Origin: Candidatus Adlerbacteria bacterium
GTDB taxonomy: Bacteria; Patescibacteriota; Minisyncoccia; Phycocordibacterales; SBAW01
Assembly: GCA_903851045.1 (NCBI GenBank)
Contig: CAINNF010000009.1
Span: 6,525-70,524 of the forward strand
Reading direction: 5' to 3'
DNA: 64,000 nt
Below are positions 14,819 to 57,284 of the stretch, one piece after another. The position numbers and the translations under genes are program-made. How positions within the stretch are numbered: the stretch's first letter is position 1; every line of letters begins with the position of its first letter. Under the pieces are notes generated by a model. It was not told where the DNA came from and did no database searches. It worked only from the letters and a program-made list of their open reading frames with translations.

Positions 14819-17800
14819 TTACTGGGTTCGGTTCTGGTTAAGACCAACCGATGAGAGACCACTGATACCCGCTGCGTTCGTCCAGTCGCCTGAGCCGACC
14901 TGACCCGTGGTTGTAGCCGAGGTCGAGGTAGCGTTTGGAGACCATACGAAGTTCGATGCAGTAGACCCACCAGGAAGCAAGTTCGTGATGTTGGTCACTC
15001 CTGTTGTCGGAGCAGTCGAGTCACCCAAGAGCTTCGTGTTGATGTTGTACGTCGCACCAGTTGGTGAAACGGTACTTGTCAGCTGGAAGTAGAGGGTCTG
15101 ACCTGCGGAGACCTGGAGCGGTGCTATAGCAAGCGTCGTCGTTGCGGTACCAGCAGTACCGGTCGTCCACTGAGTCGTACCGACGAGACCGCCAGTCGTA
15201 CCAGTGTTCGCAGGCTGCGAGTATCCAGCGTCAGTGTAGGCGTAGAGGTTCACGTTCGCGATCGAGGTAACGCCACCAGAGGTGAGGTTAAACACGAATC
15301 GGTCGAGACCGATAGAACCCTGTGAGTTCGCCGTAACGGTGAAGCGCATAAGGTTACCATCAGAGACGCCGCCACTGGCGAGGCCGGTGCCAAGCGCAAT
15401 GGTTGGGAAGCTCTTGAACACACGTACACCCTGTGAGGTGACCGCACCAGTAACACCATCGATGGTCTTACCAGAGTTTGCACCTACACCGCGTGAACTG
15501 TTGTAGTTAACCTGTACGAGATCTCCTTCGGTGCCAGGCTGGCTGGTGCCGATAGCAGCAAGGTCAGCCTTGATGACGAAGGTCGCGTCAGTGTTGACTG
15601 GGAGTTGGACCGAGGTCGAGAGTGTCGAGGTTGCTGTAGCAGCGCCACTGAACACTACCGTACCAAGGAGCGTACCCGGAGCAACTGCTGCACCCGCGGT
15701 CGTGAGGACGTTGTTGCCAGCGTAGATGTACGCCTGAGCAACATCACCCGTGTTACCGACGAGCGTAAGACCGAGCTTCTGGAGGTTAACTGCCTCGTTC
15801 GTAGCGCGGAGCTTGATCACGTTGACCGTGAGGCCAGTCGTGCCACCTGCTGCGACCGAGTAACCCGGCGCAGAAGAGTCCGTACTAGCTGCGAGCGTTG
15901 CACCTGTTGAAGCGGTCATGGTCGGTGCAGTGCCACCAGGGGTGGTTACACTAACCGTTGAACCAGAGACAGCACCTGTTGCAGAGAAGAGCGACATGGT
16001 CGTTGCCTCTGCACCCCAAGTGTAGGTCGCGTTTGCCGAAGCAGACGAGGTGACGTTACAAGTGAGACCAAGACCCAAGACGGTGCCTTTCGGTACAGTG
16101 AGAGCATTGTCGAAGCTAAAGGTTACATGGTAGGTACCTGCACCTGGAGGTGGGACCGTTGAACTGATCTGCGTACTATTGACGACACGAGAGCCGGTGT
16201 TAAGGGCGGTCGTACCATTCCAGAGTTGGCAGTTGCTAAGGTCCGAGGTGGTCGCATAATTTGCGAGCACAACCTGGAGCGGAACCGAGGACATACGCAC
16301 ATCTTCACCCGACTGCGAAGCATCGAGGTTGATGGTCGCGAACTTGATGTTCTGGCCACCCGCGACGATAGTCTGCGAGGTCGGAGATGAGCCGTTGGAG
16401 ACAACGAGGGTCGCTGCCTGTACGGTCATCGTGTTCATGGTGAAGTCGGTCACACCGATAGCGACATTGTTACCGGTCGTCTGACCAGTGACATTCGTCC
16501 AGTCAGTCTTAGGATTGGTGTCTGCCTGGATAGTCGCACCGTTGATACCAGTCTGAGTCTGTACCTGACCCTCGAGGGTGTAGGTGTGTGAGCCAGTTGG
16601 GAATGCGGTCGCACCACTAAAGGTGACGTACTGCGTGTACGAGTTGCAGTACCCGTTGGTACTGTAGCTGGTCGCATCATCACAGGTCGCGTTGTACGGA
16701 CCAGCGACGACAGAGCCACTCTCGTTCACAAGAGATACGTTCTGAAGTACCGCGAGCTTAGCACTCGTGGTGAAGTGAACCTTAATTGACTGAGCCTGGA
16801 TAGCCTCGCCAGTAAGGTTGGTCGAGAAGCCACCGAGCGGCTGGTTCGGGACGTTGACTGCGATGTTCTGAGCACCGACAGAACTTGCGTTCTGGATGGT
16901 CGAGAAGGTACCTGCAGTAACGGTCACCGTTGAGCCCTGGATCCACGGAGTTGGGTTAGTGCCCGAGACGAAGATCGTCTTGTGTGAAGACGTGCTGTCG
17001 TATGTCGGAGTAATTGCACTCTGGTTACCATTGGTTGGCGTGATGCCGAAGCCATAGGTGTTACCAACGAGGTAGATGTCAGTGTTTCGGTAGATGTCGA
17101 ACTCTGCGTAGGTGTTCGCTGTGGTGTTTGCACCAAGGTCACCCTGGACATACAGGTCAATGGTCTGACCCTTCGGGATAACGATCGCCGATGGGAAGAC
17201 AGTTGAGTAGTAGCGACCAGTCGAGTCAACCGTAGCTGGGTACGACGTACCGTTGACTACAGTAACAACATTCTGGACACCAGATGTTGAACCTGAGTTG
17301 TACCAAGTGATGGACTTGAAGCTCACATCTTCAGCAGAACCTGCCTGTACGCGAACACCGGTGAAGCGGTATGCGGTCGTACCGATCGGCTGACTCGAAG
17401 CTGAGTTCGGGTCGTACGAAGATGACTGGATACTTGCGGTACCGATAGTGAGCGCAGTGTTGATGGTGTTACTTGCGCCAGTGATCGGGAGCGAGCCTGA
17501 GACGGTCGAGCCGGTGTTAACCGCCGTAACCGCAAAGGATGCTACGTCGCCAGAACCAGGAATCGTACCATTAACTGGAGCAATGTTACCCTCGACCCAG
17601 AAGGTCTTGGACGTACCAGCTGCGATAGTCACCGGCGTGCCGATGATAGCAGAGTGGTTCGCATCAAGAACGCGTGAGGTGCCAAGCTGCATACCGGTCG
17701 TAGCGTCGACAAGGATGACGCCTGCGAAGTCGGTGTCGAGCGAAGGACCCTGGCGCTGGACAGTGACGTTATTAACGGTCACTGCTGAAGCACCTGCCGT

Positions 17801-18469
17801 AACGGTGAACGCAGTGTACGGAACGCGTGACGCGCCCTGAGGAGCAATCGCGTTAACCGGCTGCGTACCAGCTGAGACGGTTGCAGTACCAGAGGTGGTC
17901 GTACCGCCGGTGGTCGTGCCACCAGTAGTAGTACCGCCAGTGGTCGTGCCGCCGGTCGTACCTGTGCAAAGGCTGTTGAGCTTCGCGCGGGTCATAGGAC
18001 CAACGTTACCGACCGCACTGATGCCGTTCGCAGTCTGGAAGGCCGTAACAGCCTTCTTCGTAGCAGGACCGAAGGTCGAGGTCTCCATACCTGGAGAACC
18101 TGCGCCCGTAGCGGCGATCTGCGTCGAAGCACTGAGGTTGAGGAACTGCTGGAGTGCCTTTACATCAGCACCAGTAGAACCTACCTGTAGATTGCGAGAC
18201 CAAGTGAACGGACACACTCCGCCGGTCGAGACGGTAGTACCGCCGGTCGTACCGGTGGTCGCCTGGCCATTGAGAGCACTGTTAACATTTGCGATCGTTG
18301 CAGCATCTGCGCCGAAAGACGAGAGGAGGTTCAGAATGCTCTGGACCTGCGTCTGGCTCAGTGCAGCTGCGCGTACCGGTGCTGAAGCTCCGAGCAAAAG
18401 CGCGAAGGCAACTGCGACGCCGGCTGCGAAAGCAACGAGTCGTGTTGTAGAACTCTGAGTAATAGTCAT
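14819..18469 (-). CDS. Very large secreted cell-surface protein (1216 aa). It has a signal peptide, two peptidoglycan-binding-like (PG_binding_1-type) modules and (TTGG)n linkers, followed by a long Thr/Ser/Gly-rich beta-rich region.
   Basis: N-terminal signal 'LLLGASAPVRAAA'. Repeated motif 'GSTGADVKALQQFLN...GPATKKAVTAFQTANGI'. 'TTGGTTTGGTTTGGTTTGG'. Many small ORFs on both strands within this span are artefacts. Confidence 0.8.
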   Translation of the reverse strand: MTITQSSTTRLVAFAAGVAVAFALLLGASAPVRAAALSQTQVQSILNLLSSFGADAATIANVNSALNGQATTGTTGGTTVSTGGVCPFTWSRNLQVGSTGADVKALQQFLNLSASTQIAATGAGSPGMETSTFGPATKKAVTAFQTANGISAVGNVGPMTRAKLNSLCTGTTGGTTTGGTTTGGTTTGGTTTSGTATVSAGTQPVNAIAPQGASRVPYTAFTVTAGASAVTVNNVTVQRQGPSLDTDFAGVILVDATTGMQLGTSRVLDANHSAIIGTPVTIAAGTSKTFWVEGNIAPVNGTIPGSGDVASFAVTAVNTGSTVSGSLPITGASNTINTALTIGTASIQSSSYDPNSASSQPIGTTAYRFTGVRVQAGSAEDVSFKSITWYNSGSTSGVQNVVTVVNGTSYPATVDSTGRYYSTVFPSAIVIPKGQTIDLYVQGDLGANTTANTYAEFDIYRNTDIYLVGNTYGFGITPTNGNQSAITPTYDSTSSHKTIFVSGTNPTPWIQGSTVTVTAGTFSTIQNASSVGAQNIAVNVPNQPLGGFSTNLTGEAIQAQSIKVHFTTSAKLAVLQNVSLVNESGSVVAGPYNATCDDATSYSTNGYCNSYTQYVTFSGATAFPTGSHTYTLEGQVQTQTGINGATIQADTNPKTDWTNVTGQTTGNNVAIGVTDFTMNTMTVQAATLVVSNGSSPTSQTIVAGGQNIKFATINLDASQSGEDVRMSSVPLQVVLANYATTSDLSNCQLWNGTTALNTGSRVVNSTQISSTVPPPGAGTYHVTFSFDNALTVPKGTVLGLGLTCNVTSSASANATYTWGAEATTMSLFSATGAVSGSTVSVTTPGGTAPTMTASTGATLAASTDSSAPGYSVAAGGTTGLTVNVIKLRATNEAVNLQKLGLTLVGNTGDVAQAYIYAGNNVLTTAGAAVAPGTLLGTVVFSGAATATSTLSTSVQLPVNTDATFVIKADLAAIGTSQPGTEGDLVQVNYNSSRGVGANSGKTIDGVTGAVTSQGVRVFKSFPTIALGTGLASGGVSDGNLMRFTVTANSQGSIGLDRFVFNLTSGGVTSIANVNLYAYTDAGYSQPANTGTTGGLVGTTQWTTGTAGTATTTLAIAPLQVSAGQTLYFQLTSTVSPTGATYNINTKLLGDSTAPTTGVTNITNLLPGGSTASNFVWSPNATSTSATTTGQVGSGDWTNAAGISGLSSVGLNQNRTQ

Positions 18470-25985: not shown

Positions 25986-26504
25986 TTATGCTACTAGTGC
26001 GTCAATCGATTTGTCGAGCTCCTCATCGGATACCTCGACCGCTTTCTCTGTTGCCACCACCACCTCTGGCTTCTTGATGGTCTCACCCGCGAGACGGTTA
26101 GAGGCGAAGACGGCACGGCGGGGAGCCGGCATATCCTCGCGGACGGTCTCGATGATAAGGAAACGCAATACTTCGGAGATACCGTTGATAGCGACCTTGA
26201 AGGCAGGCATATGCTCACGCTCCATCGCGAACTTGATACAACCAAAGTATGCCTCGGCGTACTTCTCACGCTTACCCTGCACGGAGCGCTCGACGACGTA
26301 GGCAAGCGACATACGGGTCGGGAACTGCTCAGAAATAATTTCATTCTCACCGAGGGCCTTGCGGACGAGTTCAACCACAGCTGCTACCCCGTCGTCTCCG
26401 ACGGTAGGTACGACATGAAAACCGAGTTCGTAGATCGGTGTCGTGTCCTTCTTCGCTTGGGTTAACCCTTCGGCTGGTGCCTCAGGATGCGACTTTTCGG
26501 TCAT
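25986..26504 (-). CDS. rpsF: 30S ribosomal protein S6, with terminal extensions
   Basis: Position in an rpsF-ssb-rpsR arrangement, plus the S6-like core 'YELGFHVVP...LAYVV'. Confidence 0.7.
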   Translation of the reverse strand: MTEKSHPEAPAEGLTQAKKDTTPIYELGFHVVPTVGDDGVAAVVELVRKALGENEIISEQFPTRMSLAYVVERSVQGKREKYAEAYFGCIKFAMEREHMPAFKVAINGISEVLRFLIIETVREDMPAPRRAVFASNRLAGETIKKPEVVVATEKAVEVSDEELDKSIDALVA

Positions 26505-27818: not shown

Positions 27819-28349
27819 TCAGGATGTGTGCCGCGTTTTCTCTAACCCCACCCTCTGCAAAATATCGTCAACGATCTCGTCGGTTGGTCGAGTTGCGTCA
27901 ACTGTTTCAACCCCTTCTTTGATCAAGCGTTGTTGTTTTAATTCGTGGTCCGATAGGATCCGCTCTATCTCTCCCGGCTTATGATGGCTCTCGTGCTCAT
28001 GCTTTTCTAACCTATCGCGCAACGTAGCAGCATCGATAGTAAGTACGAACACTTTGTCGAACAGCGGATAGAAATCTCCCTGTTTGAACACGATCGCTCC
28101 CAAAAAGACAGTCTCGTCGCTCGCGAGCAATCTCTCGATCTCTGGTCGCTGCCACACCCACGCATACTTGGCCCAATCGACCACACCACTCTCCGGCCAC
28201 TCCACCACCTCACCAGTATCCTTATTTTGGAGCCTGGTCACGCCAGGCATGTCGTCTGTGTTGTAGGCCGTATATCCGCGTTCCTGGAGCGCCTTAATGA
28301 CCGATGTCTTGCCAGACCCCTGCCTGCCGGTAATAAAATATTTACCCAT
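27819..28349 (-). CDS. P-loop NTPase / nucleoside-nucleotide kinase-like protein
   Basis: Walker A 'GRQGSGKTS', 176 aa. Packed between metG and tatD. Confidence 0.6.
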   Translation of the reverse strand: MGKYFITGRQGSGKTSVIKALQERGYTAYNTDDMPGVTRLQNKDTGEVVEWPESGVVDWAKYAWVWQRPEIERLLASDETVFLGAIVFKQGDFYPLFDKVFVLTIDAATLRDRLEKHEHESHHKPGEIERILSDHELKQQRLIKEGVETVDATRPTDEIVDDILQRVGLEKTRHTS

Positions 28350-29893: not shown

Positions 29894-30958
29894 CTACTCG
29901 TCAACCATGCGCTGGCGTACGAGAGTTCGGTCCTTCTTCTTTTCCAGATCGGCGACGAACTCTTGGATAGCACCTGCTATCGGCACCGACAGCAACACTC
30001 CGAGGAACCCGAAGAGGCGCAGGCCCACGAGGAGCGCGAGGATGACGAGGAGCGGCGGCACACCGACGACCTTCTTAACGACAAGCGGGTAGATAAGGTG
30101 CGCCTCGAACTGCTGCACGATCAAGTAGAGCGCGATCACGCCCAGTGCGAGTGGGAGCCCCCCAGTCGTGAACGCGAGAATGGCACCGGGTATGGCAGCA
30201 AGGATCTGACCGAACACGGGAATGAGTTCGAACATGGCGGCCAAAAGCGCCAACAGGAGCGCATACTTCACCCCAAGTATCGTGAGTCCAAGAAAGAGCA
30301 ATACGCCGACGAGACAACCGAGGATGAGCTGACCTTGCATCCACTTGCCTATCTTGTCCTGCGAGCGCTTCCAAAGATTGAGAATGTATGCTTCTTGTTC
30401 GACCGGAGTGATGATGCGCAAGAACACCTCGATCCCCGTCTCTTGAACCGAGAAGTAGAAGGAGAAAACGACGATGAGCACGAACGAGGTGAGACCGCCG
30501 AAGAACGCCGAAAGCGTCGTGAAGGCACCGCCAGTCGTGTCGGAGACGGTCGATGAGATGTTGTTGAGCAAATCGGCCGAAGAGAGCGTATTGATACCGG
30601 TCCATGACAAGAGACCGTGGGTGAGGTCGTCGACGTTGAGCGTCGAGAGTGAAGTTGGTAATTGTTGGAGTACGCCCGCCGCGTCGTGGAGTACGGGCGG
30701 CACGAAGATGAATAGTGTACCGAAGAAGATGGCGGCTATGCCCACGTACATACCGATAACCGCAACCAGGCGTGATATCTTCAGTGTCCGCTTCAGCCAA
30801 TGCACCCCCGGCTCCATCGCCGAGGCTATGACGACGGCACTGAGCACAATGAGCACAATGTCACGCAGGTACCACAGCGTAGCGAACAGTATCAAAAGGA
30901 GAATCGTCCGGACAATAGTCCCCGAAGTGATCTGAATGGTATGGTCCTTGCCCTGCAT
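29894..30958 (-). CDS. AI-2E family transporter (PerM/UPF0118 permease)
   Basis: 354 aa, eight TM helices with the family-typical topology. Confidence 0.75.
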   Translation of the reverse strand: MQGKDHTIQITSGTIVRTILLLILFATLWYLRDIVLIVLSAVVIASAMEPGVHWLKRTLKISRLVAVIGMYVGIAAIFFGTLFIFVPPVLHDAAGVLQQLPTSLSTLNVDDLTHGLLSWTGINTLSSADLLNNISSTVSDTTGGAFTTLSAFFGGLTSFVLIVVFSFYFSVQETGIEVFLRIITPVEQEAYILNLWKRSQDKIGKWMQGQLILGCLVGVLLFLGLTILGVKYALLLALLAAMFELIPVFGQILAAIPGAILAFTTGGLPLALGVIALYLIVQQFEAHLIYPLVVKKVVGVPPLLVILALLVGLRLFGFLGVLLSVPIAGAIQEFVADLEKKKDRTLVRQRMVDE

Positions 30959-32414: not shown

Positions 32415-34370
32415 TTATTGAGCTGCTACGTTACCCATCGCGTCGACGTATCCCTGATCGTTCACGAGCGCAATGTTCGCGGCTGGCGCTAACGACTCGA
32501 CGTTCACCTGCGCGAAACGATCTTGCCCCGCAAGTTTGGCATCGCCCGTGAGCGTGAGCCGCTGCCCCGCCTGCGATGAGCTCGGCATGAGCGACACCTG
32601 GAAGGCGGTCGAAAGTGGCGAACTACTAAAGCCGGTACCCGCCTTGAGGTCCCCTATCGCCCACGTGACCGTGCGACTCGACTGGTCGTAGGTGACCGTG
32701 GCGTCTTTTGCCGCCACGAAGGTCACATACGGCGGCAGTACGGCGGACACGGTCGCGTTGGCTATAGTATTTGAAGAATTGGTAACCGTCCAGACCAACG
32801 TGTACGTAGTGCGCTGCTCTGGGGCTGGCGGCATGGGACCAGCGTTCGTGAATGGTCCGGTGAAATGGAGCGCCGATTCGGTCAACAGTACCGCCGAAGC
32901 TATCGTCGCCTCCATAGAAGCTGCGGACGAGACCGTCTCCGGCACACCGGTCTGCCCTTCGCGCACACCAGAGACGGTTAGGTTGAGGTCGACCGTAGGG
33001 TTCTTGTATACCGTACCGTTCGTCCCAGGTGCGAGCGTATCGAACGAGAACTGCAAGGTCCCGGTACTACCCGGCGCGACGTTCGCCAGACTCGACTCCT
33101 GGTCCTTGTTCCATGTGATGGTGTTATCCGCTGATTGATAGAAACCATCGGACGAGTTCACTGATGTTCTATCGAGCGCGGGACCCGCAAGAGACAGGAC
33201 GACCTGTGCGTTCGAGACGGGTACCGAAAGATTGTTCTGCCAGGTGATGGTACCGTTCACCGTCTTGCCCGACTGTATCGCGACCGACTTACCCTGTTTC
33301 CCATCGAGCACAAGGGTCGCGGTAATGAACGGTTTATGTACCGTCAAGGTCTGCGGAATAATGATGAACGGTATCTTGATACTGGTGTCGGTCTGGTCCG
33401 CATCCGAGCCGGTCGAGAATTTGAAGACTCGTTCATCGCCGTCTTGACCGATGATGGAACCCACGAGGTGCACCTGCTTCGTCTCGCCGGGAGCGAGCGT
33501 GCCGAGTCGCCAGAGGTTGCCGTTCGACTGAGCCTGCGGTGTGGCGTTCGTGAGCGTATAGCCGTACGGGAACTGGCCTTGTAACACCAGATTCTGGATC
33601 GGCGCCTGCGAATTGCTGGTCACCGACACATCCATAGAGAACGATTGGTCCGAGATAGCTTCAGAGGGAGCAGCGATACTCACCGACACCGGAGAGGAGC
33701 CGACCGTAAAGTCCGCTTCTGCCTGCTTTTGGAATATCGCGTTCGAGTTCGCGACCGAATATTGAAGCGTCACCATGACCTTCTGTTGTGCACCCTCCTG
33801 ACCATAGAACACCGCGTTTGCCGTTCGCTTTACTTGTTGGCCAGCGTTCACACTTCCGACGGACTGACGCACGTGTTGGAGCGGTTGGGATTGGTCGACA
33901 GGATTACGCGTGTTGTCTGGATAGTCGATCGAGACATCCACAAGCTGTAAGGCTGATTGATTGCGATTATTGATGATGATCTCGAGCGTCGTCTGCTTAC
34001 CACCATCGATGATCGACGGTGCCAACACTTGTAGGTCGATATTTTGAGGTGAGATGGTGTTGGTGCCGGCATAAAATATATATCCCGCAACACCTACGGC
34101 AACGACAAAAAACACGAACGAGGCAATGAAAAATTTGCTTGCAAACGACATGTGGGGTGGCGGGGGAATCTCGACCGAGGTCGTCTTGGGGATGTCCGGC
34201 TCTATCTTTGCGTCACTCCACGCAACAGGCGGATGCTCGACACCCTCAGGCTCAAGAGTCGAACGGCTTTCAGTATGCAACTCGGGCAGGTGCTTACGTG
34301 AGTAGAGCGAATCCTTCATGCCGTCGATAGAGCCTTTCGCTCTCCCCATCCTATTCCCCCGTAGCGCCAT
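32415..34370 (-). CDS. Membrane-anchored extracellular protein with repeated DUF11/CARDB-like beta-sandwich domains
   Basis: 651 aa, a single N-terminal TM helix, and repeated 'L/VAPGxTxxxxF' motifs. Confidence 0.6.
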   Translation of the reverse strand: MALRGNRMGRAKGSIDGMKDSLYSRKHLPELHTESRSTLEPEGVEHPPVAWSDAKIEPDIPKTTSVEIPPPPHMSFASKFFIASFVFFVVAVGVAGYIFYAGTNTISPQNIDLQVLAPSIIDGGKQTTLEIIINNRNQSALQLVDVSIDYPDNTRNPVDQSQPLQHVRQSVGSVNAGQQVKRTANAVFYGQEGAQQKVMVTLQYSVANSNAIFQKQAEADFTVGSSPVSVSIAAPSEAISDQSFSMDVSVTSNSQAPIQNLVLQGQFPYGYTLTNATPQAQSNGNLWRLGTLAPGETKQVHLVGSIIGQDGDERVFKFSTGSDADQTDTSIKIPFIIIPQTLTVHKPFITATLVLDGKQGKSVAIQSGKTVNGTITWQNNLSVPVSNAQVVLSLAGPALDRTSVNSSDGFYQSADNTITWNKDQESSLANVAPGSTGTLQFSFDTLAPGTNGTVYKNPTVDLNLTVSGVREGQTGVPETVSSAASMEATIASAVLLTESALHFTGPFTNAGPMPPAPEQRTTYTLVWTVTNSSNTIANATVSAVLPPYVTFVAAKDATVTYDQSSRTVTWAIGDLKAGTGFSSSPLSTAFQVSLMPSSSQAGQRLTLTGDAKLAGQDRFAQVNVESLAPAANIALVNDQGYVDAMGNVAAQ

Positions 34371-34411: not shown

Positions 34412-36922
34412 TTATTCCTCCCGATACCAAGCGCTCGCAGTTGCATCCCAGCGCACGCGCATACCTGTGTATGCATTGAGCGTCGAACCGTTGGTCCAGC
34501 CGTTCACGGTCGGAGAGAACGTGAGCGAGGTGATAGACCCCGCGTAGTTGGAGAATTGGATTGACTGACCATCCGCAAGTGCGGTTGGGAGTGTCACAGT
34601 AGATGCGCTTACGGTGGTGCCTTGGGTGAATCGTACGAGGGAGGTGTTAGCAGGGACGATGTAGGTGGCACCGAGCGATTGGCGAACACCGCTACCATCT
34701 ATCTGAGCACCAACGGATACGACGGGTATTCCCGAGGTACCGCTCAAGCCGAGCTGCACAGAGCTTGGGCCAATAACAACAGACGACGCGTTATTACCGC
34801 TAGAGAACGACAGTGTCGTCGCATTAGTCCATGTCAGATTTACACTTAGTCCGGTAGCGCCCCACGTCTTCGCCATCATGTCTGGCGACAACGTTACCGG
34901 ATTACTCGGTGCAACACCCGTGACAACAGGTGCACGATAGAGCGTGACGGATGCAACGCTTCCGCCCGATAACGTCAGTAGGTACACGCCCCCATACGCA
35001 TCAGTCGCGTAGTAAGTATTTCCATCTGTCGGCCATGAAGAACCAGCAGATGCGATTGATGAAAACGCACCAACCTCTCCACCTGAACTTATGTTCAAAC
35101 CATTTCCTGTATCAGAGATTGTTCCACGTCCAACCGACACTGCGCCCGTTCCGCTCACAACGAAGCCTTGTGAACGAAACGCTGAGTCCGAGAAGGTCGG
35201 CAGGAGAAGATCTATTCCTCGAAACGCCGATGATGGTGACGAATTGTAGTTATATCCAAGCTCACCTCTTAAGACAGTGCCAGCCGTTGTTGACAAGGGC
35301 CACAGACCACCGCGACCACCAACCTCAAAAATCGACTTCCACGGAGCTGTTGAACCTCCTTGGTCGGAAATTTTTTCAGCGACATCCTCCATTGAACCAG
35401 AAACAGCGTTCGACGAAGTATGTACAATCAGCATGCCTGACGACGAAAGATACGAGGAACCTGTATTCGCCGCAACATCGACCTCGATACCCGATCCGCC
35501 TCCGCCGTTGACATACCCTGACCCAAAACTCAGAAATGGATTAAACGCCGTGGCAGACCCCTTCGCGGTTGACGGTGTAAGACCTGTCCCACCAAATGAA
35601 TTATTCAGAGTGACACTATTCTGGCCACCTTCAATAATCCCACCGTTTGCAACGGCACCCGTCTGAATTAAATTTGTTAGGATTCCAACTCTTCCACCAG
35701 AATATCCCGCCCCACCAAAGTTATGATCGATTTGTATATCAGAAATCATCTGAGGAGCGCTCGCTGTATCGGAGTTAACAGTCCAGTGCGTCCACCCAGC
35801 AATTCCCGCATTAGTGATTGTTCCATTTAAGTTTACATTTGGACTAAAGATAGACGATAGTGCAATATTATTAGTCTGAGGCAGAGTAACATTTCCTGTT
35901 GATAGAGCTCCTGTAACCGTGGTGGTCGCGTTCAACTTTATTGAAGCTGTGCCCTGTGGGCTTATGTTTATATTAGAACCATTCGGGGTCGAAATGGTTG
36001 TATTGCCACCAGCCGCCACAGCTGTCCCAAGACTAATACTGGTGCCAACTGAGAAGGTTCCGAGACTCGTAATACTACCGCCGGTAATAGCGACGGCGTT
36101 TGCCGCTTGTGTCGCAATAGAACCGAGACCAAGGTTCGTGCGTGCCGTCGATGTACTAATAAGATCAGACAAGTTATTTTGCGGAAGTAGGCCTCCCCCT
36201 CCTACCCCACAGTCCGCCCCTGTGCCGGTGACGTTACCGTTAGCGTCTGTATGCAGACACTGCGAAGAACCAAGGATGTTGGAGAGCTTAAGCCCGGGGA
36301 TAGTGGTCGAGCCGGTGAGCGTACCACCCGAGAGTGGCAGGTATGGTAACGCAGGAATGTCAGAGGCTGTGAGCCCTGAGACTCCGTTCACCTGTGCGCC
36401 AGAGATGGTGACACCTTGGAGATTGTTAATCTTCTGTGACGCAGCGATAGCGCCCCAGAGTCCGCCGCCTGCCATGGTAGAGGTGGCGCCGTAGAGTTGT
36501 TGGTGCACCGAGTCGAGTGTCTGCTGTATAGCAGCGTTCACTGCTTGTTGCAGCTGTGCTTGGGTAACAAGTCCTGAGGCGTTGGTGGTTGTTGTGAGCG
36601 TGGCGGGTGTTGGCGCGGTGGTTGATACACCACCAGTGAGTGACTGCATGAGCGCGAGTGTTTGTGTGCCGACCGAGCCAGTGCTCGTGAGACCGTGTGC
36701 GGCTTGAAATGCTCTGACCGCTTTGATAGTGGCAGGGCCGTACGTACCGTTTGGTGTGGTGGTGAGATAGCCTTGGGTGACGAGGAACTGCTGAAGTGCT
36801 AGAACGTCAGCGCCACTACTGCCTTTGGTGAGGGTGTGGGTGATGGTGGATGCGAAGGTGAACGCGGGGGTGGATAGTAAGAAAAGGATAACGGCAAATA
36901 CCAACACTGACTTGTGGTGCAT
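34412..36922 (-). CDS. Large secreted surface protein with an N-terminal PG_binding_1-like module and a Gly/Thr/Ser-rich repetitive body
   Basis: Signal/TM 'VLVFAVILFLLSTPAFTFA', then 'GSSGADVLALQQFLVTQGY...GPATIKAVRAFQAAHGL'. The preferred start is the ATG at 36922 (MHHKS...); the ORF track extends to 37000. Confidence 0.7.
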   Translation of the reverse strand: MHHKSVLVFAVILFLLSTPAFTFASTITHTLTKGSSGADVLALQQFLVTQGYLTTTPNGTYGPATIKAVRAFQAAHGLTSTGSVGTQTLALMQSLTGGVSTTAPTPATLTTTTNASGLVTQAQLQQAVNAAIQQTLDSVHQQLYGATSTMAGGGLWGAIAASQKINNLQGVTISGAQVNGVSGLTASDIPALPYLPLSGGTLTGSTTIPGLKLSNILGSSQCLHTDANGNVTGTGADCGVGGGGLLPQNNLSDLISTSTARTNLGLGSIATQAANAVAITGGSITSLGTFSVGTSISLGTAVAAGGNTTISTPNGSNINISPQGTASIKLNATTTVTGALSTGNVTLPQTNNIALSSIFSPNVNLNGTITNAGIAGWTHWTVNSDTASAPQMISDIQIDHNFGGAGYSGGRVGILTNLIQTGAVANGGIIEGGQNSVTLNNSFGGTGLTPSTAKGSATAFNPFLSFGSGYVNGGGGSGIEVDVAANTGSSYLSSSGMLIVHTSSNAVSGSMEDVAEKISDQGGSTAPWKSIFEVGGRGGLWPLSTTAGTVLRGELGYNYNSSPSSAFRGIDLLLPTFSDSAFRSQGFVVSGTGAVSVGRGTISDTGNGLNISSGGEVGAFSSIASAGSSWPTDGNTYYATDAYGGVYLLTLSGGSVASVTLYRAPVVTGVAPSNPVTLSPDMMAKTWGATGLSVNLTWTNATTLSFSSGNNASSVVIGPSSVQLGLSGTSGIPVVSVGAQIDGSGVRQSLGATYIVPANTSLVRFTQGTTVSASTVTLPTALADGQSIQFSNYAGSITSLTFSPTVNGWTNGSTLNAYTGMRVRWDATASAWYREE

Positions 36923-36983
36923 GGTGGTAGTATGGCACCCCCCCCCGCGAGGGGGCAAGGTGTGTATACACAAGACACGCTTG

Positions 36984-37565
36984 CTACAACCCCGTCGCAT
37001 TGAGCGACTCGTTTATCGTACGAGTCAGCATGCGGCGAGACGCCTGGACTCTCTGTACCATGTCTGGCGCGGTGACCGCATCACATAGGTATGGTGCGAG
37101 TTCCGACGTTTGGGGCAGATACCCTAAGTGCGCGAGCATCCGTAGGACGAGCACATACTCGATACTCTCCGCCTCGATCGGATCCTCGACCTGTATCACC
37201 TGTCCGAACCCTTCCAGGAGCGTCTCGTACAGTTCCGGCACCGCCTCCTCGCCATGTATCAATCGAAGTAATAAACGGAGCATCTTCCCTATTTGCGTAC
37301 GACGTGCGGCGCTCGTCGCCGAAAGCGAACGGGAGATGCCTTCGACCCCGGTCAACTTCCACTCGTGGCGCCCACGCACGAGGGAGAACCGAGCGATCGT
37401 GAGCGGTTCCAGACCGAACCGGAGCTTCGACACCTCCTTGCGAGCCGAACGAGCTGCGACACGCACGAGCCCTAGTTCGCGCGTCAGGATCATCACGAGC
37501 GTGTTCGACTCTCCCACGCTACGCTTCCCTACCACCAACCCTTCGGTGACGTGGATCACATGCAT
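36984..37565 (-). CDS. recO: DNA repair protein RecO
   Basis: OB-fold N-terminus 'GLVVGKRSVGESNTLVMILTRELGLVRVAARSARK...FGLEPLT' and 'YVLVLRMLAHLGYLP'. Directly downstream of ileS. Confidence 0.7.
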   Translation of the reverse strand: MHVIHVTEGLVVGKRSVGESNTLVMILTRELGLVRVAARSARKEVSKLRFGLEPLTIARFSLVRGRHEWKLTGVEGISRSLSATSAARRTQIGKMLRLLLRLIHGEEAVPELYETLLEGFGQVIQVEDPIEAESIEYVLVLRMLAHLGYLPQTSELAPYLCDAVTAPDMVQRVQASRRMLTRTINESLNATGL

Positions 37566-37567
37566 AG

Positions 37568-40500
37568 TTACCGCGTGAGCGTACAGCTCGCAGGGAATGG
37601 GAAGTTCGTTGGCTCGTCGGTCGAGGATGATCCGATGACCAGATCGGAGAGGTTGGTATCGCGCACAAAGGTGTCCTTGAAGCGTGTGAAGAATGTCGCG
37701 CCTTCGCCGTTGGTATCGACACGCAGCACAGGCCGATCGTTGATCGTCAGGTTGGTGTTCTTTCGTAGTTCTTGTATCGAGCGCACGAAGTCACGCACCA
37801 ACCCTTCCTCCTGCAACTCCGGCGTGAGCGTCGTATCGAGCTCGGGTTCTCCAGGAGTTGCCGTATCCAGCTTGATCCCAGGACCTCCTGGCTCTACACC
37901 ACTTTTGAAGACGACTTCCTTCACGTTGATCTCGTCGCGCAGAATATCCAAAAATTCTTGGGGCAGTGGTGGCTTCTCTGTGAAATGCTTGATCGTCAAT
38001 GCGCGTAATGGTTGCCGGATCTTGATCCCCGCCATCTCTCTCTGTTTCAAAGCCATGGTCGCGAAGCTGCGCACATACGACATACGGGTCAACACCTCTT
38101 GATCGATCACGATCTCGGTCGGCCAATCGCACAAGTGTACACTTTGCTGATCGTAGGACTTTTTGACACGCAAGTAGAGGTCTTCGGCATAGAACGGCAT
38201 GACGGGGGCCATCACTTTCGCAACCACCACGAGCACTTCTCGCAAGGTCGCGAGCGCTTCCCCTTTGTCGGTTCCCTCTTCCTTGAAGCGGTCACGTGAC
38301 CGTCGCACGTACCAGGTCGATAGGTCGTCGATAAAGCTCGCGAGTGGTCGTGCCGCCGCATCGAGCTCGTAGCTTTCGAACCCTTTCGTCGCATCCCGCA
38401 CCAACTCTCCGAGTCGAGAGATGATCCAACGGTCGAGCACATGTGTGCCGACGCTCGTCGTATCCGCGGCGTCGGTGGTCGCATACAGCTCATAGAACGA
38501 GCGAACATTGTCCAGGCGCATAAGCAGTTTCTTGGTGACCTCCTCGACGCCGCGCGCCGCGAAGCGCAGATCTTCGCCGCGAATGACGGCGGACGACAAG
38601 AGATAGTAGCGCAGCGAGTCCGCACCGAACCGCTCCACCAACTCCATCGGGTCGGGGTAGTTCTTCAGTTTCTTGCTCATCTTGCGACCATCTTCGGCGA
38701 GCACGAGTCCGTTGGTCACGACCGACTTGTAGGGACTTTTGCCGAACAGCCCGACACCAAGCACGATGAGCGAGTAGAACCAACCACGCGTCTGGTCGAT
38801 GCTCTCGGCGATGAAATCCGCAGGATACCCTTTCGCGAAGAAGCCGAGCGTACCTTTCGGGTTAAAGACGTCGGTCTCCATCGGGTAATGGTGCGACGCG
38901 TACGGCATCGAACCGGATTCGAACCAGCAGTCAAAGACATCCGTAACACGCTTCCATTCACCGTCTAAACCGCCACCCAACTGCACCTCGTCGATGAACG
39001 GGCGGTGCAGGTCGAGCATGAAGTGTTCGTTGTGCGGATACGCCGTGAACATGAGTTCCATCCATCCGGCGGTCGGCAGGAGCTTGCGCCGATGCTCGTC
39101 GTGCAGTTCGTGACGGGGTGTGCGCTGCGCTACCGCCTGCATGAGCCATGCGGGGATCTCGTGCGTGACGATGAGCACCCGCTTGCCGCTATAGCGACGC
39201 TCGATATCGAAGAGAAAATCACCCACGCGGGCGAAGACCTGGTCGTACGTCTCTCCCCCAACGACGGTGCGATTGAAGCGGTCCGAGAGCGTCGCAAACA
39301 CCGCATGCCACTCCGCCTGCGGCGCGTTATTCTTCTCACCGAAGTGGGTCTCGGACAACCGCGTATCCGTCATGATGCTGGATGGCGAAAGACCAAGCTC
39401 TTCGCACACGATGCGCGCGGTCTCTTGGGTGCGCGTCAAAGGCGAGGCGACGATAATATCGACGCCGAGCAGCGCCAGTTCTTTAGCGGTCGCTCGTGCC
39501 TCGGCCCGACCGACGTCGGTCAAGTGGTTCTCTATATCGTTCGTCGAGTTCACGAAGTTCTCCGCATTACTGCGAGCTTCGCCGTGGCGCATCACCAAGT
39601 AACGATTGCCCGACTTGCGCACCATCGAAAGCAGCTCGTCGACGGACCCGATCGCCTTCAACTCCTTGGTCTTGGTGTTCCGCCATACCGGGATAGGCGC
39701 ACCCCAGTAGCGACTGCGCGATATCGCCCAATCCGGCGCGCTTTCGAGCAGGTTGTGGAAGCGCCCACGCCCGACATGCTCGGGCACCCAGCGAACTTTT
39801 TTATTCTCTTCGAGGAGATCTTGTTTGAGGTCCTGGACGTTCACGAACCACGAGGTCGCTGCCCAGTTGAGGAGCGGCGTGTCGCAGCGCCAGCAGTGCG
39901 GGTAGGAGTGCGTGATCTTCTCTTGTTTGAAGAGCAACCTCTTTGCATCCAAATACGCGACTATCTTCGCATCGGTCTCCATGTGGCGACCTTTTGGTTT
40001 GACTGGTAGGTGTTCGAAATCCTTAACCGTCGAGATAAAGCGACCATCATCGGTCACGTGGTGGATGAGCGGGATCTTCTCCTTTTGTGCCAACTCCAAG
40101 TCCTCTGCACCGTACGCGGGTGCCAAGTGGACGATGCCCGTGCCATCCTGCAGTGTCACGTAGTCGGCAGCGTAGACCTTCCACGCGTGCGTCTTATGCT
40201 TGTGCACCAAATCTTTAAAGTATGGGAACGGCGGTTCGTACGACTTCCCTACCAAATCCTTCCCCAAAATTTCGCCCTCGATCTTCACCGCATCACTACC
40301 AAAAACTTTAACCACAAGCTCTTTGGCGACCACCACGAACCCATCATCGGTGCGCACCTTCACATACGTCGCGCCTGCGTTGACCGCGGCGGCAGAGTTG
40401 CCCGGTAGCGTCCATGGGGTCGTCGTCCAGATGAGGAGCGAGGTGCCCGGCTCGTCGACAAGCGGCAACTTCACCGTCACTGCGATGTCGGGGATGTCTT

Positions 40501-41131
40501 GGTACGCCTGCGCCACTTCGAAGTTCGAGAGCGTCGTCCCGCAACGCGGGCACAGATGCATCGCCTTGAACCCCTCATAGATCAAATTCTTGTCATACAA
40601 CGTCTTGAACGACCACCACACCGACTCGGTGTAGGTCGCGTCCATCGTCTTGTAGTCATGCTCCATGTCTGCCCAACGACCCATGCGCGGGATGATGCGA
40701 CGCCACTCGTCCGCATAGCGAAGCACCGCGCCCTGCGCCTTGGCGTTGAACTGCTGGATACCGTACTCCTCGATGTCGCGCTTGGACTTAAATCCTAACT
40801 CCTGCTCGATCTGATTCTCCAGCGGCAAACCGTGGCAGTCCCACCCCCACTGTCGTGGCACGTGGTAGCCCTGCATGGTCCGATAGCGCGGAATAGCGTC
40901 CTTGATAGCGCTCTGGAGCAGGTGGCCGTAGTGCGGCAACCCCGTGGCGAACGGCGGCCCATCATAAAAAACATACTCACCCTTGGGCGCAGGCTTCGCG
41001 AGCGACTTCTCGAAGATATGGTGATTGTCCCAGAACTTCAGAACCTCCTCTTCTCGAGCAGCAAAAGGCGACTTCGCCACATACGGCGGCTTCTCCCGCT
41101 CCTCCCCGCCCTGTTTTAAATCGTCTACCAT
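37568..41131 (-). CDS. ileS: Isoleucyl-tRNA synthetase carrying an internal histidine-phosphatase (PGAM-like) domain insertion
   Basis: 'PFATGLPHYGHLL' (HIGH), 'KMSKKLKN' (KMSKS) and CP1/editing blocks. The start is placed at the ATG at 41131 (MVDDLKQGG...). The extra 95 aa up to 41416 are not IleRS-like. Confidence 0.9.
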   Translation of the reverse strand: MVDDLKQGGEEREKPPYVAKSPFAAREEEVLKFWDNHHIFEKSLAKPAPKGEYVFYDGPPFATGLPHYGHLLQSAIKDAIPRYRTMQGYHVPRQWGWDCHGLPLENQIEQELGFKSKRDIEEYGIQQFNAKAQGAVLRYADEWRRIIPRMGRWADMEHDYKTMDATYTESVWWSFKTLYDKNLIYEGFKAMHLCPRCGTTLSNFEVAQAYQDIPDIAVTVKLPLVDEPGTSLLIWTTTPWTLPGNSAAAVNAGATYVKVRTDDGFVVVAKELVVKVFGSDAVKIEGEILGKDLVGKSYEPPFPYFKDLVHKHKTHAWKVYAADYVTLQDGTGIVHLAPAYGAEDLELAQKEKIPLIHHVTDDGRFISTVKDFEHLPVKPKGRHMETDAKIVAYLDAKRLLFKQEKITHSYPHCWRCDTPLLNWAATSWFVNVQDLKQDLLEENKKVRWVPEHVGRGRFHNLLESAPDWAISRSRYWGAPIPVWRNTKTKELKAIGSVDELLSMVRKSGNRYLVMRHGEARSNAENFVNSTNDIENHLTDVGRAEARATAKELALLGVDIIVASPLTRTQETARIVCEELGLSPSSIMTDTRLSETHFGEKNNAPQAEWHAVFATLSDRFNRTVVGGETYDQVFARVGDFLFDIERRYSGKRVLIVTHEIPAWLMQAVAQRTPRHELHDEHRRKLLPTAGWMELMFTAYPHNEHFMLDLHRPFIDEVQLGGGLDGEWKRVTDVFDCWFESGSMPYASHHYPMETDVFNPKGTLGFFAKGYPADFIAESIDQTRGWFYSLIVLGVGLFGKSPYKSVVTNGLVLAEDGRKMSKKLKNYPDPMELVERFGADSLRYYLLSSAVIRGEDLRFAARGVEEVTKKLLMRLDNVRSFYELYATTDAADTTSVGTHVLDRWIISRLGELVRDATKGFESYELDAAARPLASFIDDLSTWYVRRSRDRFKEEGTDKGEALATLREVLVVVAKVMAPVMPFYAEDLYLRVKKSYDQQSVHLCDWPTEIVIDQEVLTRMSYVRSFATMALKQREMAGIKIRQPLRALTIKHFTEKPPLPQEFLDILRDEINVKEVVFKSGVEPGGPGIKLDTATPGEPELDTTLTPELQEEGLVRDFVRSIQELRKNTNLTINDRPVLRVDTNGEGATFFTRFKDTFVRDTNLSDLVIGSSSTDEPTNFPFPASCTLTR

Positions 41132-41260
41132 AATAAAAAGACTATACCACAAAAGGGTTTTCAGAATAGGTCGACCATCCCGCCACACCACCCTACGGCG
41201 GGATTGACAAATGGTATTATATTGGTGTATAATATATCCAGACTGGCAATCCGGCCAGAA

Positions 41261-41551
41261 ATGGAGGTTCTCGTGGAAATCAACTACGCTCTCGGTTTGG
41301 TGACGGTTTTTGTAACCATCGCGGCGCTGCTCCCCGTTCTTTGGCGGGTACTGCCGGGAACCTGGCGGTTCGTGAGTCCCATTGTTTGCGTTGCGGTCAT
41401 CTGCTACGCCTTCCATCTGGGCTGGCCGCTGATCTGGTATTGGCAGCCGGTCGACGGGAGCGTGGGTGATTCATCCATAATCGCCATTCTCGCCTACGTG
41501 CTTGCGATGTTAATGGGCGCGCGGATGGCGGCGGAGTGCCCTTTTTTTTAA
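41261..41551 (+). CDS. Small membrane protein, hypothetical
   Basis: Two or three TM helices, a GGAGG near the start, and a terminator downstream. Confidence 0.4.
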   Translation: MEVLVEINYALGLVTVFVTIAALLPVLWRVLPGTWRFVSPIVCVAVICYAFHLGWPLIWYWQPVDGSVGDSSIIAILAYVLAMLMGARMAAECPFF

Positions 41552-48417: not shown

Positions 48418-49308
48418 ATGAAACCATACGCCGAGCGCACGCCCGATTATCAGTATCGTCAATTACTGGAGCGGATCATGAACGAAGGTCGCGACACCAT
48501 GCCCATACATGGCATTGGTGCACGTGGCGTGGTCGGGCACCAAATCCGCTACACGATGGAGAACGGCTTTCCGCTCATGACCGAGCGCGACTTGGCACGC
48601 ACCTTCCCCGGCGCACTGGGCGAACACATCGGCTTTCTCAACGGTGCACGAACGCTCGAGGATCTCAAAAAATATGGCATGCCCGCGATATTTTGGGACC
48701 GGTGGGTCACCAAGGAGAAGTGCGAGATTTTCGGGCTGCCCGAAGGTGACCTTGGTGACGGTTCCTATGGCGCCGCCTGGGGCAGCTTCCCCACTAAAGA
48801 GGGCGAGCCGTTCAACCAGATCGCGCACGTGGTGCAGCAGATCAAAGAGCGACCCTATTTGCGCACGCACTTCGTGTCACCATGGATACCGCAGTACACG
48901 CTCCAACACGAAGGTCTGACGCGCAAAGTCGTCGTGGCGCCGTGCCATGGATGGATGCATATCTTCACTTACCCCGACACGAAAGAGTTGGTCATCCACC
49001 ACTTCCAGCGCAGCGCCGATGTGCCGATCGGTGTCGTCTCCAACATCGTACAGTATGCGGCGTTCGGTATGATGCTCGGCCAGGTCATCGGGTATACCAT
49101 GAAGGAGTTGGTGCATACGTTCTCGGACGCACACATCTACCACAACCAGTTCGACGCGGTGCAAGAACTTCTTGCGCGCGAACCAAAGCCCTTCCCCACC
49201 GTGACGCTTGACCCGACCATCACCAACATATTCGACTTTCGCCCGTCTCACTTCACACTTACCGATTACGAACCACACCCCAAAATGGTCATACCGACCG
49301 CGATATAG
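48418..49308 (+). CDS. thyA: Thymidylate synthase (ThyA family, divergent)
   Basis: Catalytic 'VVAPCHGW', 'FQRSADVPIGVVSNIVQY' (R166/S167/D169/N177 equivalents), 'SDAHIYHNQ', and a folA gene nearby. The N-terminal Arg-loop (RTGTGT) is not conserved. Confidence 0.8.
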   Translation: MKPYAERTPDYQYRQLLERIMNEGRDTMPIHGIGARGVVGHQIRYTMENGFPLMTERDLARTFPGALGEHIGFLNGARTLEDLKKYGMPAIFWDRWVTKEKCEIFGLPEGDLGDGSYGAAWGSFPTKEGEPFNQIAHVVQQIKERPYLRTHFVSPWIPQYTLQHEGLTRKVVVAPCHGWMHIFTYPDTKELVIHHFQRSADVPIGVVSNIVQYAAFGMMLGQVIGYTMKELVHTFSDAHIYHNQFDAVQELLAREPKPFPTVTLDPTITNIFDFRPSHFTLTDYEPHPKMVIPTAI

Positions 49309-56789: not shown

Positions 56790-57284
56790 CTATGAGTGCT
56801 TTTGCAATTTCTCGATATCGGCCATAAGTCGCTCAAGGCCGGCATGAATCTCCTTTAGCGTCCTCTCCTGCCCCGCCTGCTTCGCCTCCTCTTCTTTATC
56901 CTCCTCGGTCATCTCCTCGACATCCTCTTGGAGCTCATCGACGTCTTCCTGGATCTCGTCAACGTCCTCTTGGATCTCATCCACGTCCTCCTGGATCTCG
57001 TCGATATCCTCCTGGATCTCGTCGATGTTCTGCCCCACCTCCTCGATGGTCGCGCTTGTAAGGTTGATGGTCATCTGGATAAAGATGGAGAGATAGATAG
57101 CTTCAAGCGACACCACCGTCGTTAGTACCAACAACATCCGATCGAACGGCAAGATCCCAAGCCACACCGCACTAAAGCTCGCAAGAAAAATGAACGTATG
57201 TAGCACGATGGACGGCAGTGACCCGACCCACCGGGTCACCCCCAGCGCAAATCGCTCCACCCCCTGCTTCGGCCGCTGTACCAT
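56790..57284 (-). CDS. DUF1003-like membrane protein with C-terminal acidic heptad repeats
   Basis: Two TM helices, then '(D/E)xDEIQED' repeated five times. Confidence 0.55.
   Translation of the reverse strand: MVQRPKQGVERFALGVTRWVGSLPSIVLHTFIFLASFSAVWLGILPFDRMLLVLTTVVSLEAIYLSIFIQMTINLTSATIEEVGQNIDEIQEDIDEIQEDVDEIQEDVDEIQEDVDELQEDVEEMTEEDKEEEAKQAGQERTLKEIHAGLERLMADIEKLQKHS
56918..57022. repeat. Five tandem 21-bp repeats inside the CDS, encoding the DxDEIQE heptads
   Basis: gacrtcytcytggakctcrtc repeated five times. The units are in frame. Confidence 0.8.

Follow-up and report, generated by a model that had tools for sequence, protein, structure and literature searches.

Homopolymer-driven phase variation is textbook knowledge for mucosal pathogens and mycoplasmas. 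In Neisseria meningitidis, the length of the homopolymer lying in the spacer between the -35 and -10 elements of porA (poly-G), opc and fetA (poly-C) sets promoter strength stepwise and not as a strict on/off switch, while in Mycoplasma hyorhinis the vlp genes constitute a lipoprotein multigene family with conserved 5' regions, including promoter and signal peptide, and with a poly-A in each -35/-10 spacer. In the fim2, fim3, fimX and fimN genes of Bordetella, a C-stretch separates the activator-binding 'fim box' from the -10 box; its length differs among paralogues, species and strains, pure and interrupted tracts coexist, and alleles differing by 1 bp show ~4-fold differences in transcript level (PMC1891110). 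At the poly-A of Neisseria nspA, an effect of length occurs even without a -35 consensus (PMC6389960). A full-text literature search returned no paper tying SSR phase variation to Patescibacteria/CPR.

The window, that is, the whole stretch of 64,000 nucleotides of Candidatus Adlerbacteria DNA analysed here, carries on its minus strand a gene for a surface protein whose start codon is preceded at short distance by a run of nine G (G9). We assign a probability of roughly 50% to the combined reading that this run is a slippage-prone spacer in the leaderless promoter of the gene of a peptidoglycan (PG)-anchored protein, and that its length modulates expression. Coordinates are collected in Table 1, and the sense strand from the stop codon of recO to the start codon of the surface gene reads TAG-CAAGCGTGTCT-TGTGTATACACA-CC-TTGCCC-CCTCGC-GGGGGGGGG-TGC-CATACT-ACCACC-ATG(36922).

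Table 1. Features at and around the G tract (window positions; promoter positions relative to the inferred transcription start).
Feature	Position	Strand	Remarks
recO	36984..37565	-	Pfam RecO_N and RecO_C; stop codon 61 nt before the surface-gene ATG
Perfect 12-nt palindrome TGTGTATACACA	36961..36972	-	just upstream of the -35-like hexamer
-35-like TTGCCC	36953..36958	-	18 nt upstream of the -10 hexamer; spacer CCTCGC + G9 + TGC
G9 homopolymer (C9 on the + strand)	36938..36946	-	about -24..-16 relative to the inferred transcription start (A of ATG 36922)
Extended -10 TGC-CATACT	36929..36937	-	TG at -15/-14, hexamer -12..-7; abuts the G tract
ATG start of the surface gene, inferred +1 of a leaderless mRNA	36920..36922	-	6 nt past the -10 hexamer
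Surface-protein gene, 836 aa	34412..36922	-	signal peptide 1-24, PG_binding_1 36-92 (~36647-36817)
G-to-T nonsense site, GGA to TGA, codon 287	36061	-	L015 position 3124, ERZ27229602; truncates the surface protein

The initial annotation, which had proposed the run as a candidate phase-variation switch, is borne out by the sequence as regards its position: the C9 of the plus strand is a G9 on the sense strand, and its final G lies 16 nt upstream of the ATG of the MHHKS start, the 15 nt between them being TGCCATACTACCACC. It is also, as had been noticed, the longest homopolymer in the window, followed by a T8 at 41542-41549 and then by a few A7/T7 runs. Length 6 is reached by five G/C runs in the 64-kb window, lengths 7 and 8 by none, and length 9 by this one. 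For runs of at least 9 in this window, 0.47 (C) plus 0.31 (G) would be expected under an iid model and 0.19 (C) plus 0.06 (G) under a first-order Markov model; the genome is, however, poor in G/C runs, and extrapolation of their geometric decay (ratio 0.19 per base) lowers the expectation to ~0.06. G9 is a statistical outlier, with the length (at least ~8) and the over-representation characteristic of the G/C SSRs of contingency loci.

The run is not an assembly artefact, because nine independently retrieved contigs have exactly G9. The exact RecO protein was located on 17 contigs, and G9 is present in all 8 of them with DNA (L001-L008) as well as in L015, contigs of this type being 99.9-100% identical to the window; an 862-aa product called from an upstream ATG, which needs the G9 frame, is recorded on 7 contigs. 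No alternative N-terminal variant was found in the 90% cluster of the 862-aa product, and the 836-aa product that gene callers would be expected to give on a non-G9 allele is not on record, which constitutes evidence for a uniform G9 and not against the assignment of the start given below. Taken together, at least 14 contigs, representing ~10 assemblies or runs, have G9, and several of these may go back to shared lakes or shared reads; uniform length, named in the initial annotation as evidence against a switch if seen by deep sequencing, is thus observed in consensus sequences, and length polymorphism is absent from this locus at that level. One 21.5-kb scaffold stops exactly one base past the run (36937), a break that could reflect loss of coverage or heterogeneity at the tract.

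Gene callers placed the start of the surface gene at an ATG at 37000, which yields an ORF of 862 aa that overlaps recO and that, as the initial annotation had indicated, does run as ...LPPRGGGCH... across the tract, reading it in frame as GGG. Were this the true start, the gain or loss of one G would truncate the protein by frameshift, and the ORF is open from 37000. However, the resulting 26-residue extension (MRRGCSKRVLCIHTLPPRGGGCHTTT) is not conserved, overlaps the end of recO and precedes a Sec-type signal peptide (MHHKSVLVFAVILFLLSTPAFTFA/S) that is complete from MHHKS at 36922; upstream, the homologues display non-triplet indels and other or no in-frame starts; an identical 900-aa product is called for the G10 and G11 alleles of the homologue P0003, described below; and the leaderless promoter falls inside the supposed extension. 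A switch by coding frameshift is hardly probable at all, and the option of a tract inside the coding sequence had to be abandoned. The locus likewise does not fall in the intragenic frameshift subtype, its start being MHHKS at 36922 and the unconserved extension upstream holding the promoter. Because the signal peptide starts at 36922, the starts of the homologues align there and the indels upstream are non-triplet, the product is taken as 836 and not 862 aa, and these comparisons indicate that ATG 36922, the start preferred from the outset, is the correct one.

The signal peptide and the PG_binding_1 domain (E = 2.4e-16) support the predicted nature of the product downstream of the tract, namely a secreted protein anchored to peptidoglycan. 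Its PG_binding_1 domain is followed by a Thr-rich linker, a conserved LYGATSTMAGGGLWGAIAASQKINNL module, a G/S/T-rich middle and a conserved C-terminal module of ~92 aa. The protein had been described as repeat-rich, which does not hold: TRF gives just three marginal short arrays near the 5' end, and the sequence is instead G/S/T-rich and of low complexity. No recognisable domains were found in the G/S/T-rich middle, the PG-binding domain was the only match of the surface protein in PDB and PHROG sequence searches, and it was also the only confident part of an AlphaFold2 model of the 836-aa protein (7-sequence alignment; mean pLDDT 36). Neither a DGR-type template repeat nor cassette repeats for the gene were found in the window. 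With its signal peptide and PG_binding_1 domain, and with a tailspike/pectate-lyase beta-helix in its paralogues, the gene has the profile of a surface-exposed or interaction gene; a secreted, wall-anchored member of a mosaic family with tailspike-like members is the usual class of contingency-gene product, which supports the mechanism proposed here. In one assembly (L015 in Table 1) the gene is present as a natural knockout allele, its nonsense change being one of only two differences in 3.3 kb. This observation suggests that loss of the surface protein is tolerated or selected in some populations, and is consistent with selection acting on its presence or absence.

Several other features of the window were recorded. 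A second large ORF at 14819-18469 (-), of 1216 aa, contains at 17969-18205 a PG_binding_1-like segment with 44% identity to the domain of the surface protein, and the region upstream of this ORF is AT-rich and lacks a G tract. Within the ORF at 56790-57284 (-), of 164 aa, positions 56893-57039 display an in-frame 21-nt tandem periodicity, equivalent to 7-residue repeats, in at least five overlapping copies of 65-75% identity. The ileS ORF at 37568-41416 (-), of 1282 aa, shows an unusual domain insertion, with His_Phos_1 (residues 607-773, E = 6e-31) placed between the halves of the catalytic domain, together with an N-terminal extension of ~124 aa; the deposited MAG GCA_903951275.1 has a C-to-A difference at 40238 (L001 position 328) and, coinciding with it, two gene calls in place of one ileS, which may reflect a nonsense change or a fault of assembly. 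The 23S rRNA at 3729-7220 (-) has 3492 nt as compared with 2925 nt in the model, which corresponds to ~570 nt of insertion(s), and is adjoined by the 5S at 3492-3605 (-), with no 16S alongside. CPR bacteria typically have such insertions, and rRNA genes that are not linked. A 'tRNA-???' reported by ARAGORN at 4183-4270, within the 23S, is probably a false prediction.

Promoter and Shine-Dalgarno (SD) signals were sought in the 45 nt preceding each of ~49 long window ORFs. In 8 genes a TANNNT leaves a gap of exactly 6 nt to the start codon, as compared with a background of ~1.2 per position (Poisson P ~4e-5); TGN[TC]ANNNT shows this gap in 7 genes of the window and almost no other gap, and a loose SD-like 4-mer is present in only ~12 of the 49 genes. 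Examples of an extended -10 (TGnTAnnnT) 6 nt before the ATG and without SD are 2674-3426 (-), 27819-28349 (-), 29894-30958 (-), 32415-34370 (-), 25986-26504 (-) and 48418-49308 (+), and the same grammar is observed in the related contigs L016 and L009. Such a 6-nt gap places the +1 on the A of the ATG or immediately beside it and hence points to leaderless mRNAs from extended -10 promoters, which implies that leaderless mRNAs are a major mode in this CPR-like genome. The surface gene matches this grammar exactly, as TGC-CATACT-6 nt-ATG, and its homologues present TGG-CACACT and TGC-GATACT at the same place. It is therefore quite probable that the spacer of a leaderless promoter contains the tract; with a promoter of its own in front of the gene, the tract would be promoter DNA and neither 5'UTR nor coding sequence, and any switch would be transcriptional. 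The repeat is in this way placed where a change in its length could change expression, an effect that is predicted from sequence.

An action of the tract on the initiation of translation, the other possibility raised in the initial annotation, would require it to be in the 5'UTR of a leadered mRNA, produced for example by read-through from recO, with its length altering ribosome binding or initiation. The G-run is purine-rich and SD-like, and a terminator scan found no intrinsic terminator on the minus strand between recO and the surface gene, so that read-through transcripts containing the tract are possible. Nonetheless, the 15 nt that separate the tract from the ATG are too great a distance for an SD and contain no SD-like motif; the gene is preceded by an extended -10 box of its own, at the leaderless distance that is common in the genome; and P0003 keeps the same module behind a different upstream gene. 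Given the extended -10 peak 6 nt before starts and the few SDs, the mRNA is most likely leaderless, and therefore the tract would not be transcribed from the gene's own promoter. A translational role is thus very unlikely.

The tract can also be drawn as one arm of a stem-loop, CCCCC-TCGC-GGGGG, with a 5-bp G-C stem and a tetraloop, that might end recO transcription or be a structured RNA element. This stem-loop is present in the MFE fold, and L009, the contig of the paralogue P0001, has CCCCAC-ACG-GTGGGG. However, the fold energy does not stand out from that of shuffled sequences (z = -0.06; 81 of 200 shuffles reach an equal or better energy), no Rfam match was obtained, and the C-run partner is missing from contigs L010-L013 of the homologue (TTGCACAATCGC), which nevertheless carry a longer G tract. 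No T-run follows the stem, unlike in the evident terminators of the genome, and the terminator scan gave no match. A hairpin function is consequently highly improbable, and a Rho-independent terminator was rejected as a class for this element on the values of z, T-run, scan and homologue partner just given.

Returning to the promoter, TTGC(C/A)C is present in all three family promoters, with spacers of 17 nt in P0001, 18 nt in the window and 19-20 nt in P0003, an arrangement that would be of the promoter-spacer subtype if, as we infer, the hexamer is used as the -35 element. A generic sigma-70 consensus scan did not call the surface-gene promoter, whose -35-like and -10 hexamers match 8 of 12 positions, and no clear -35 consensus was found in the other promoters of the window. 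The palindrome upstream of the hexamer is a possible regulator-binding site, and related, non-identical inverted repeats occupy the same relative place in L009 (TTGTGTTATACACA) and L010 (TTGT-GT-ACAA). At position -12, all three family promoters have C or G and not T, the base that the other promoters of the genome have there, and, because the family -10 hexamers are devoid of the -12 T, dependence of these promoters on upstream elements appears likely.

The window gene (34412-36922, minus strand), P0001 (L009:3001-5451) and P0003 (L011:3001-5703) form a mosaic family. Their N-terminal module, comprising promoter, signal peptide, PG-binding domain and LYGATSTMAGGG module, is near-identical across the family, the C-terminal module of the window protein is 88% identical to that of P0001 over 92 aa, and the middles are unrelated, with a tailspike/pectate-lyase beta-helix in P0001; this pattern suggests cassette-like recombination between surface-protein paralogues. 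P0001 is found in the same assembly as L001 (GCA_903951275.1), with ~90% DNA identity across the first ~260 nt of coding sequence. Its spacer is the interrupted GGTGGGGA, in the arrangement TTGCCC-17-GATACT-7 nt-ATG (L009), a non-slippery version, and its TTGCCC is preceded by CCGC and not by CACC. Several independent short-read assemblies break within the 5' module, at 36764, 36764, 36739 and 36893, which the near-identical paralogue explains; together with the scaffold break at 36937, these are the contig ends of L003, L004, L005, L007 and L008.

P0006 (L014) belongs to the family at a greater distance. Its leaderless promoter, TGATACAAT, lacks a G tract, and at L014:2200-2520 the signal-peptide ORF and the PG-binding domain occupy different frames that meet at an A-rich ACAAAATAAA; either the gene is frameshifted or an apparent long-read assembly has a homopolymer error there. 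P0006 was left out of the homopolymer arguments, as its assembly looks frameshifted at the A-run. P0017 is another member of the family. Beyond these, the promoter-module pattern CACCTTGCNCNNTCGCGGGGGGN{0,12}TGSCAYACT had no match in JGI metagenome contigs or in viral contigs, and among GTDB species representatives it matched the homologue L013 only, the representative of the window's own species being without a match. A protein-guided scan of JGI metagenomes with the alignment of the N-terminal module gave no confirmed relative, a homology search with the 105-aa N-terminus gave one irrelevant match, and a profile search retrieved mostly generic PG_binding_1 proteins, together with the truncated allele P0016.

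P0003 is a 900-aa homologue with PG_binding_1 and a pectate-lyase-like domain, encoded in a different genome behind a malic-enzyme gene, and its carriers include Candidatus Adlerbacteria bacterium I3b_bin-425. Its promoter module reads TTGTGTACAACCCACC-TTGCAC-AATCGC-G(n)-TGG-CACACT-GGTAGC-ATG, shares CACC-TTGC(C/A)C with the window, and has spacers of 19 or 20 nt (L010-L013). The value of n is 10 in ERZ27313165 and 11 in ERZ27313262, ERR4193669 and CAIRHB01; the distance between the genes (78 vs 79 nt) indicates 10 for ERZ1426630 and 11 for ERZ1426850. Apart from contig-end noise, this one-G indel is the sole difference between G10 and G11 contigs over ~10.4 kb, a pattern that marks a mutational hot spot unless it stems from an error in sequencing or assembling the homopolymer. 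Length polymorphism, as known from contingency loci, is thus present at the homologous locus. The idea of a contingency locus has consequently gained from a tract that differs between otherwise identical contigs in P0003 and lost from the uniform G9 at the window's own locus, while the absence of similar tracts elsewhere, initially put forward as an argument against it, is contradicted by the P0003 tract. In L016, which covers 22.7 kb of the P0003 genome, the promoter tract is the sole G/C run of at least 7, and the 64-kb window, the 22.7 kb of L016 and the 8.4 kb of L009 together contain only two such runs, both at the same promoter position.

In the mechanism that we propose, slipped-strand mispairing would add or drop one G in the tract, and this change would move the -35-like hexamer and the palindrome by 1 bp relative to the -10. 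With weak -10 hexamers (C/G at -12), the promoter probably needs upstream contacts, and transcription would then be strengthened or weakened by the length of the tract, with an optimum at a spacer of 17 nt as compared with 18 nt here and 19-20 nt in P0003. The outcome would be a stochastic, heritable and reversible 'volume control', or an on/off switch, of the surface protein. The invariant G9 at the window's locus and the negative sigma-70 scan weigh against it. A simple model with 17 nt as the ON state also fits poorly with P0003, whose spacers of 19 and 20 nt are both well above that value, and extended -10 promoters can work without a -35, in which case a 1-bp change in the spacer might matter little. 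That tract length modulates expression in nature is accordingly a proposition with, at best, even chances.

The main rival is a static or neutral spacer, G-rich and inherited with the duplicated 5' module, that slips occasionally and whose length has no regulatory effect, the G10/G11 difference in P0003 being then a neutral indel polymorphism or a homopolymer error. It accommodates well the invariance of G9 in at least 14 contigs, the failure of the consensus scan to flag the promoter and the lack of a recognisable -35 in the window's other promoters, and the GGTGGGGA at the same place in the paralogue indicates that G-richness is ancestral to the module. Considering, however, that (i) G/C runs are strongly depleted and yet two long ones share a promoter position despite a divergence of ~26% between the flanks of the window gene and P0003, (ii) the one-G indel is the sole difference in 10.4 kb between two populations, (iii) the family -10 hexamers, being without the -12 T, argue for dependence on upstream elements, and (iv) in Neisseria nspA a 1-nt change in a homopolymer alters expression even without a -35 consensus (PMC6389960), a spacer without regulatory effect is a real possibility with the odds against it. 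In particular, the maintenance of a mutable tract, pure and long, through ~26% divergence suggests selection.

On the proposed mechanism the surface gene is a plausible promoter-spacer contingency locus, in which switching would depend on the slippage outlined above. A life attached to host cells is presumed for ultra-small CPR bacteria, and stochastic switching, if true, could vary host attachment or evade phages; a poly-G switch in a promoter would be a simple mechanism for generating population heterogeneity in a few large surface proteins. It would also be the first SSR-driven phase variation in the CPR radiation, in an environmental and non-pathogenic setting. The mechanism as such is already known, and it is the taxon and the setting, a freshwater CPR bacterium with leaderless extended -10 promoters and mosaic PG-anchored tailspike-like proteins, that are candidates for novelty. 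The broader proposition that Adlerbacteria-like CPR episymbionts have true contingency loci, with poly-G leaderless promoters stochastically tuning a mosaic tailspike-like family, is tentative and would have to be regarded as doubtful for the present. Independently of it, an extended -10 located 6 nt before the ATG is a usable promoter grammar that puts right the start annotated for the surface gene and would improve start-codon calls in related MAGs.

Among known systems, Bordetella fim and Neisseria porA/opc appear to be the closest. As in Neisseria porA, opc and fetA, the homopolymer here occupies the space between the -35 and -10 positions of a surface-protein gene; the Neisseria loci display abundant variation among isolates and within cultures, whereas here it is seen only in P0003 and at the level of assembly consensus. 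With M. hyorhinis vlp the locus has in common a family of surface proteins sharing 5' regions and a homopolymer in the spacer, in a small-genome, host-dependent bacterium. Unlike in vlp, the tract is poly-G and not poly-A, and in place of lipoproteins with tandem-repeat C-termini the family comprises PG-binding proteins with tailspike-like or uncharacterised middles and no tandem repeats. Compared with Bordetella fim, no equivalent of the activator BvgA is known here, tracts measure 9-11 instead of 7-22, the window's own copy is without observed variation, and leaderless mRNAs from extended -10 promoters are predicted in an uncultivated freshwater CPR bacterium, which is not a pathogen. Nonetheless, the architecture resembles that of fim in its paralogous surface genes with a conserved promoter module and in a G/C homopolymer that abuts the -10 downstream of a conserved element, and, as in fim, pure and interrupted tracts of different length coexist among the family copies, which carry G9, G10/G11 and the interrupted GGTGGGGA.
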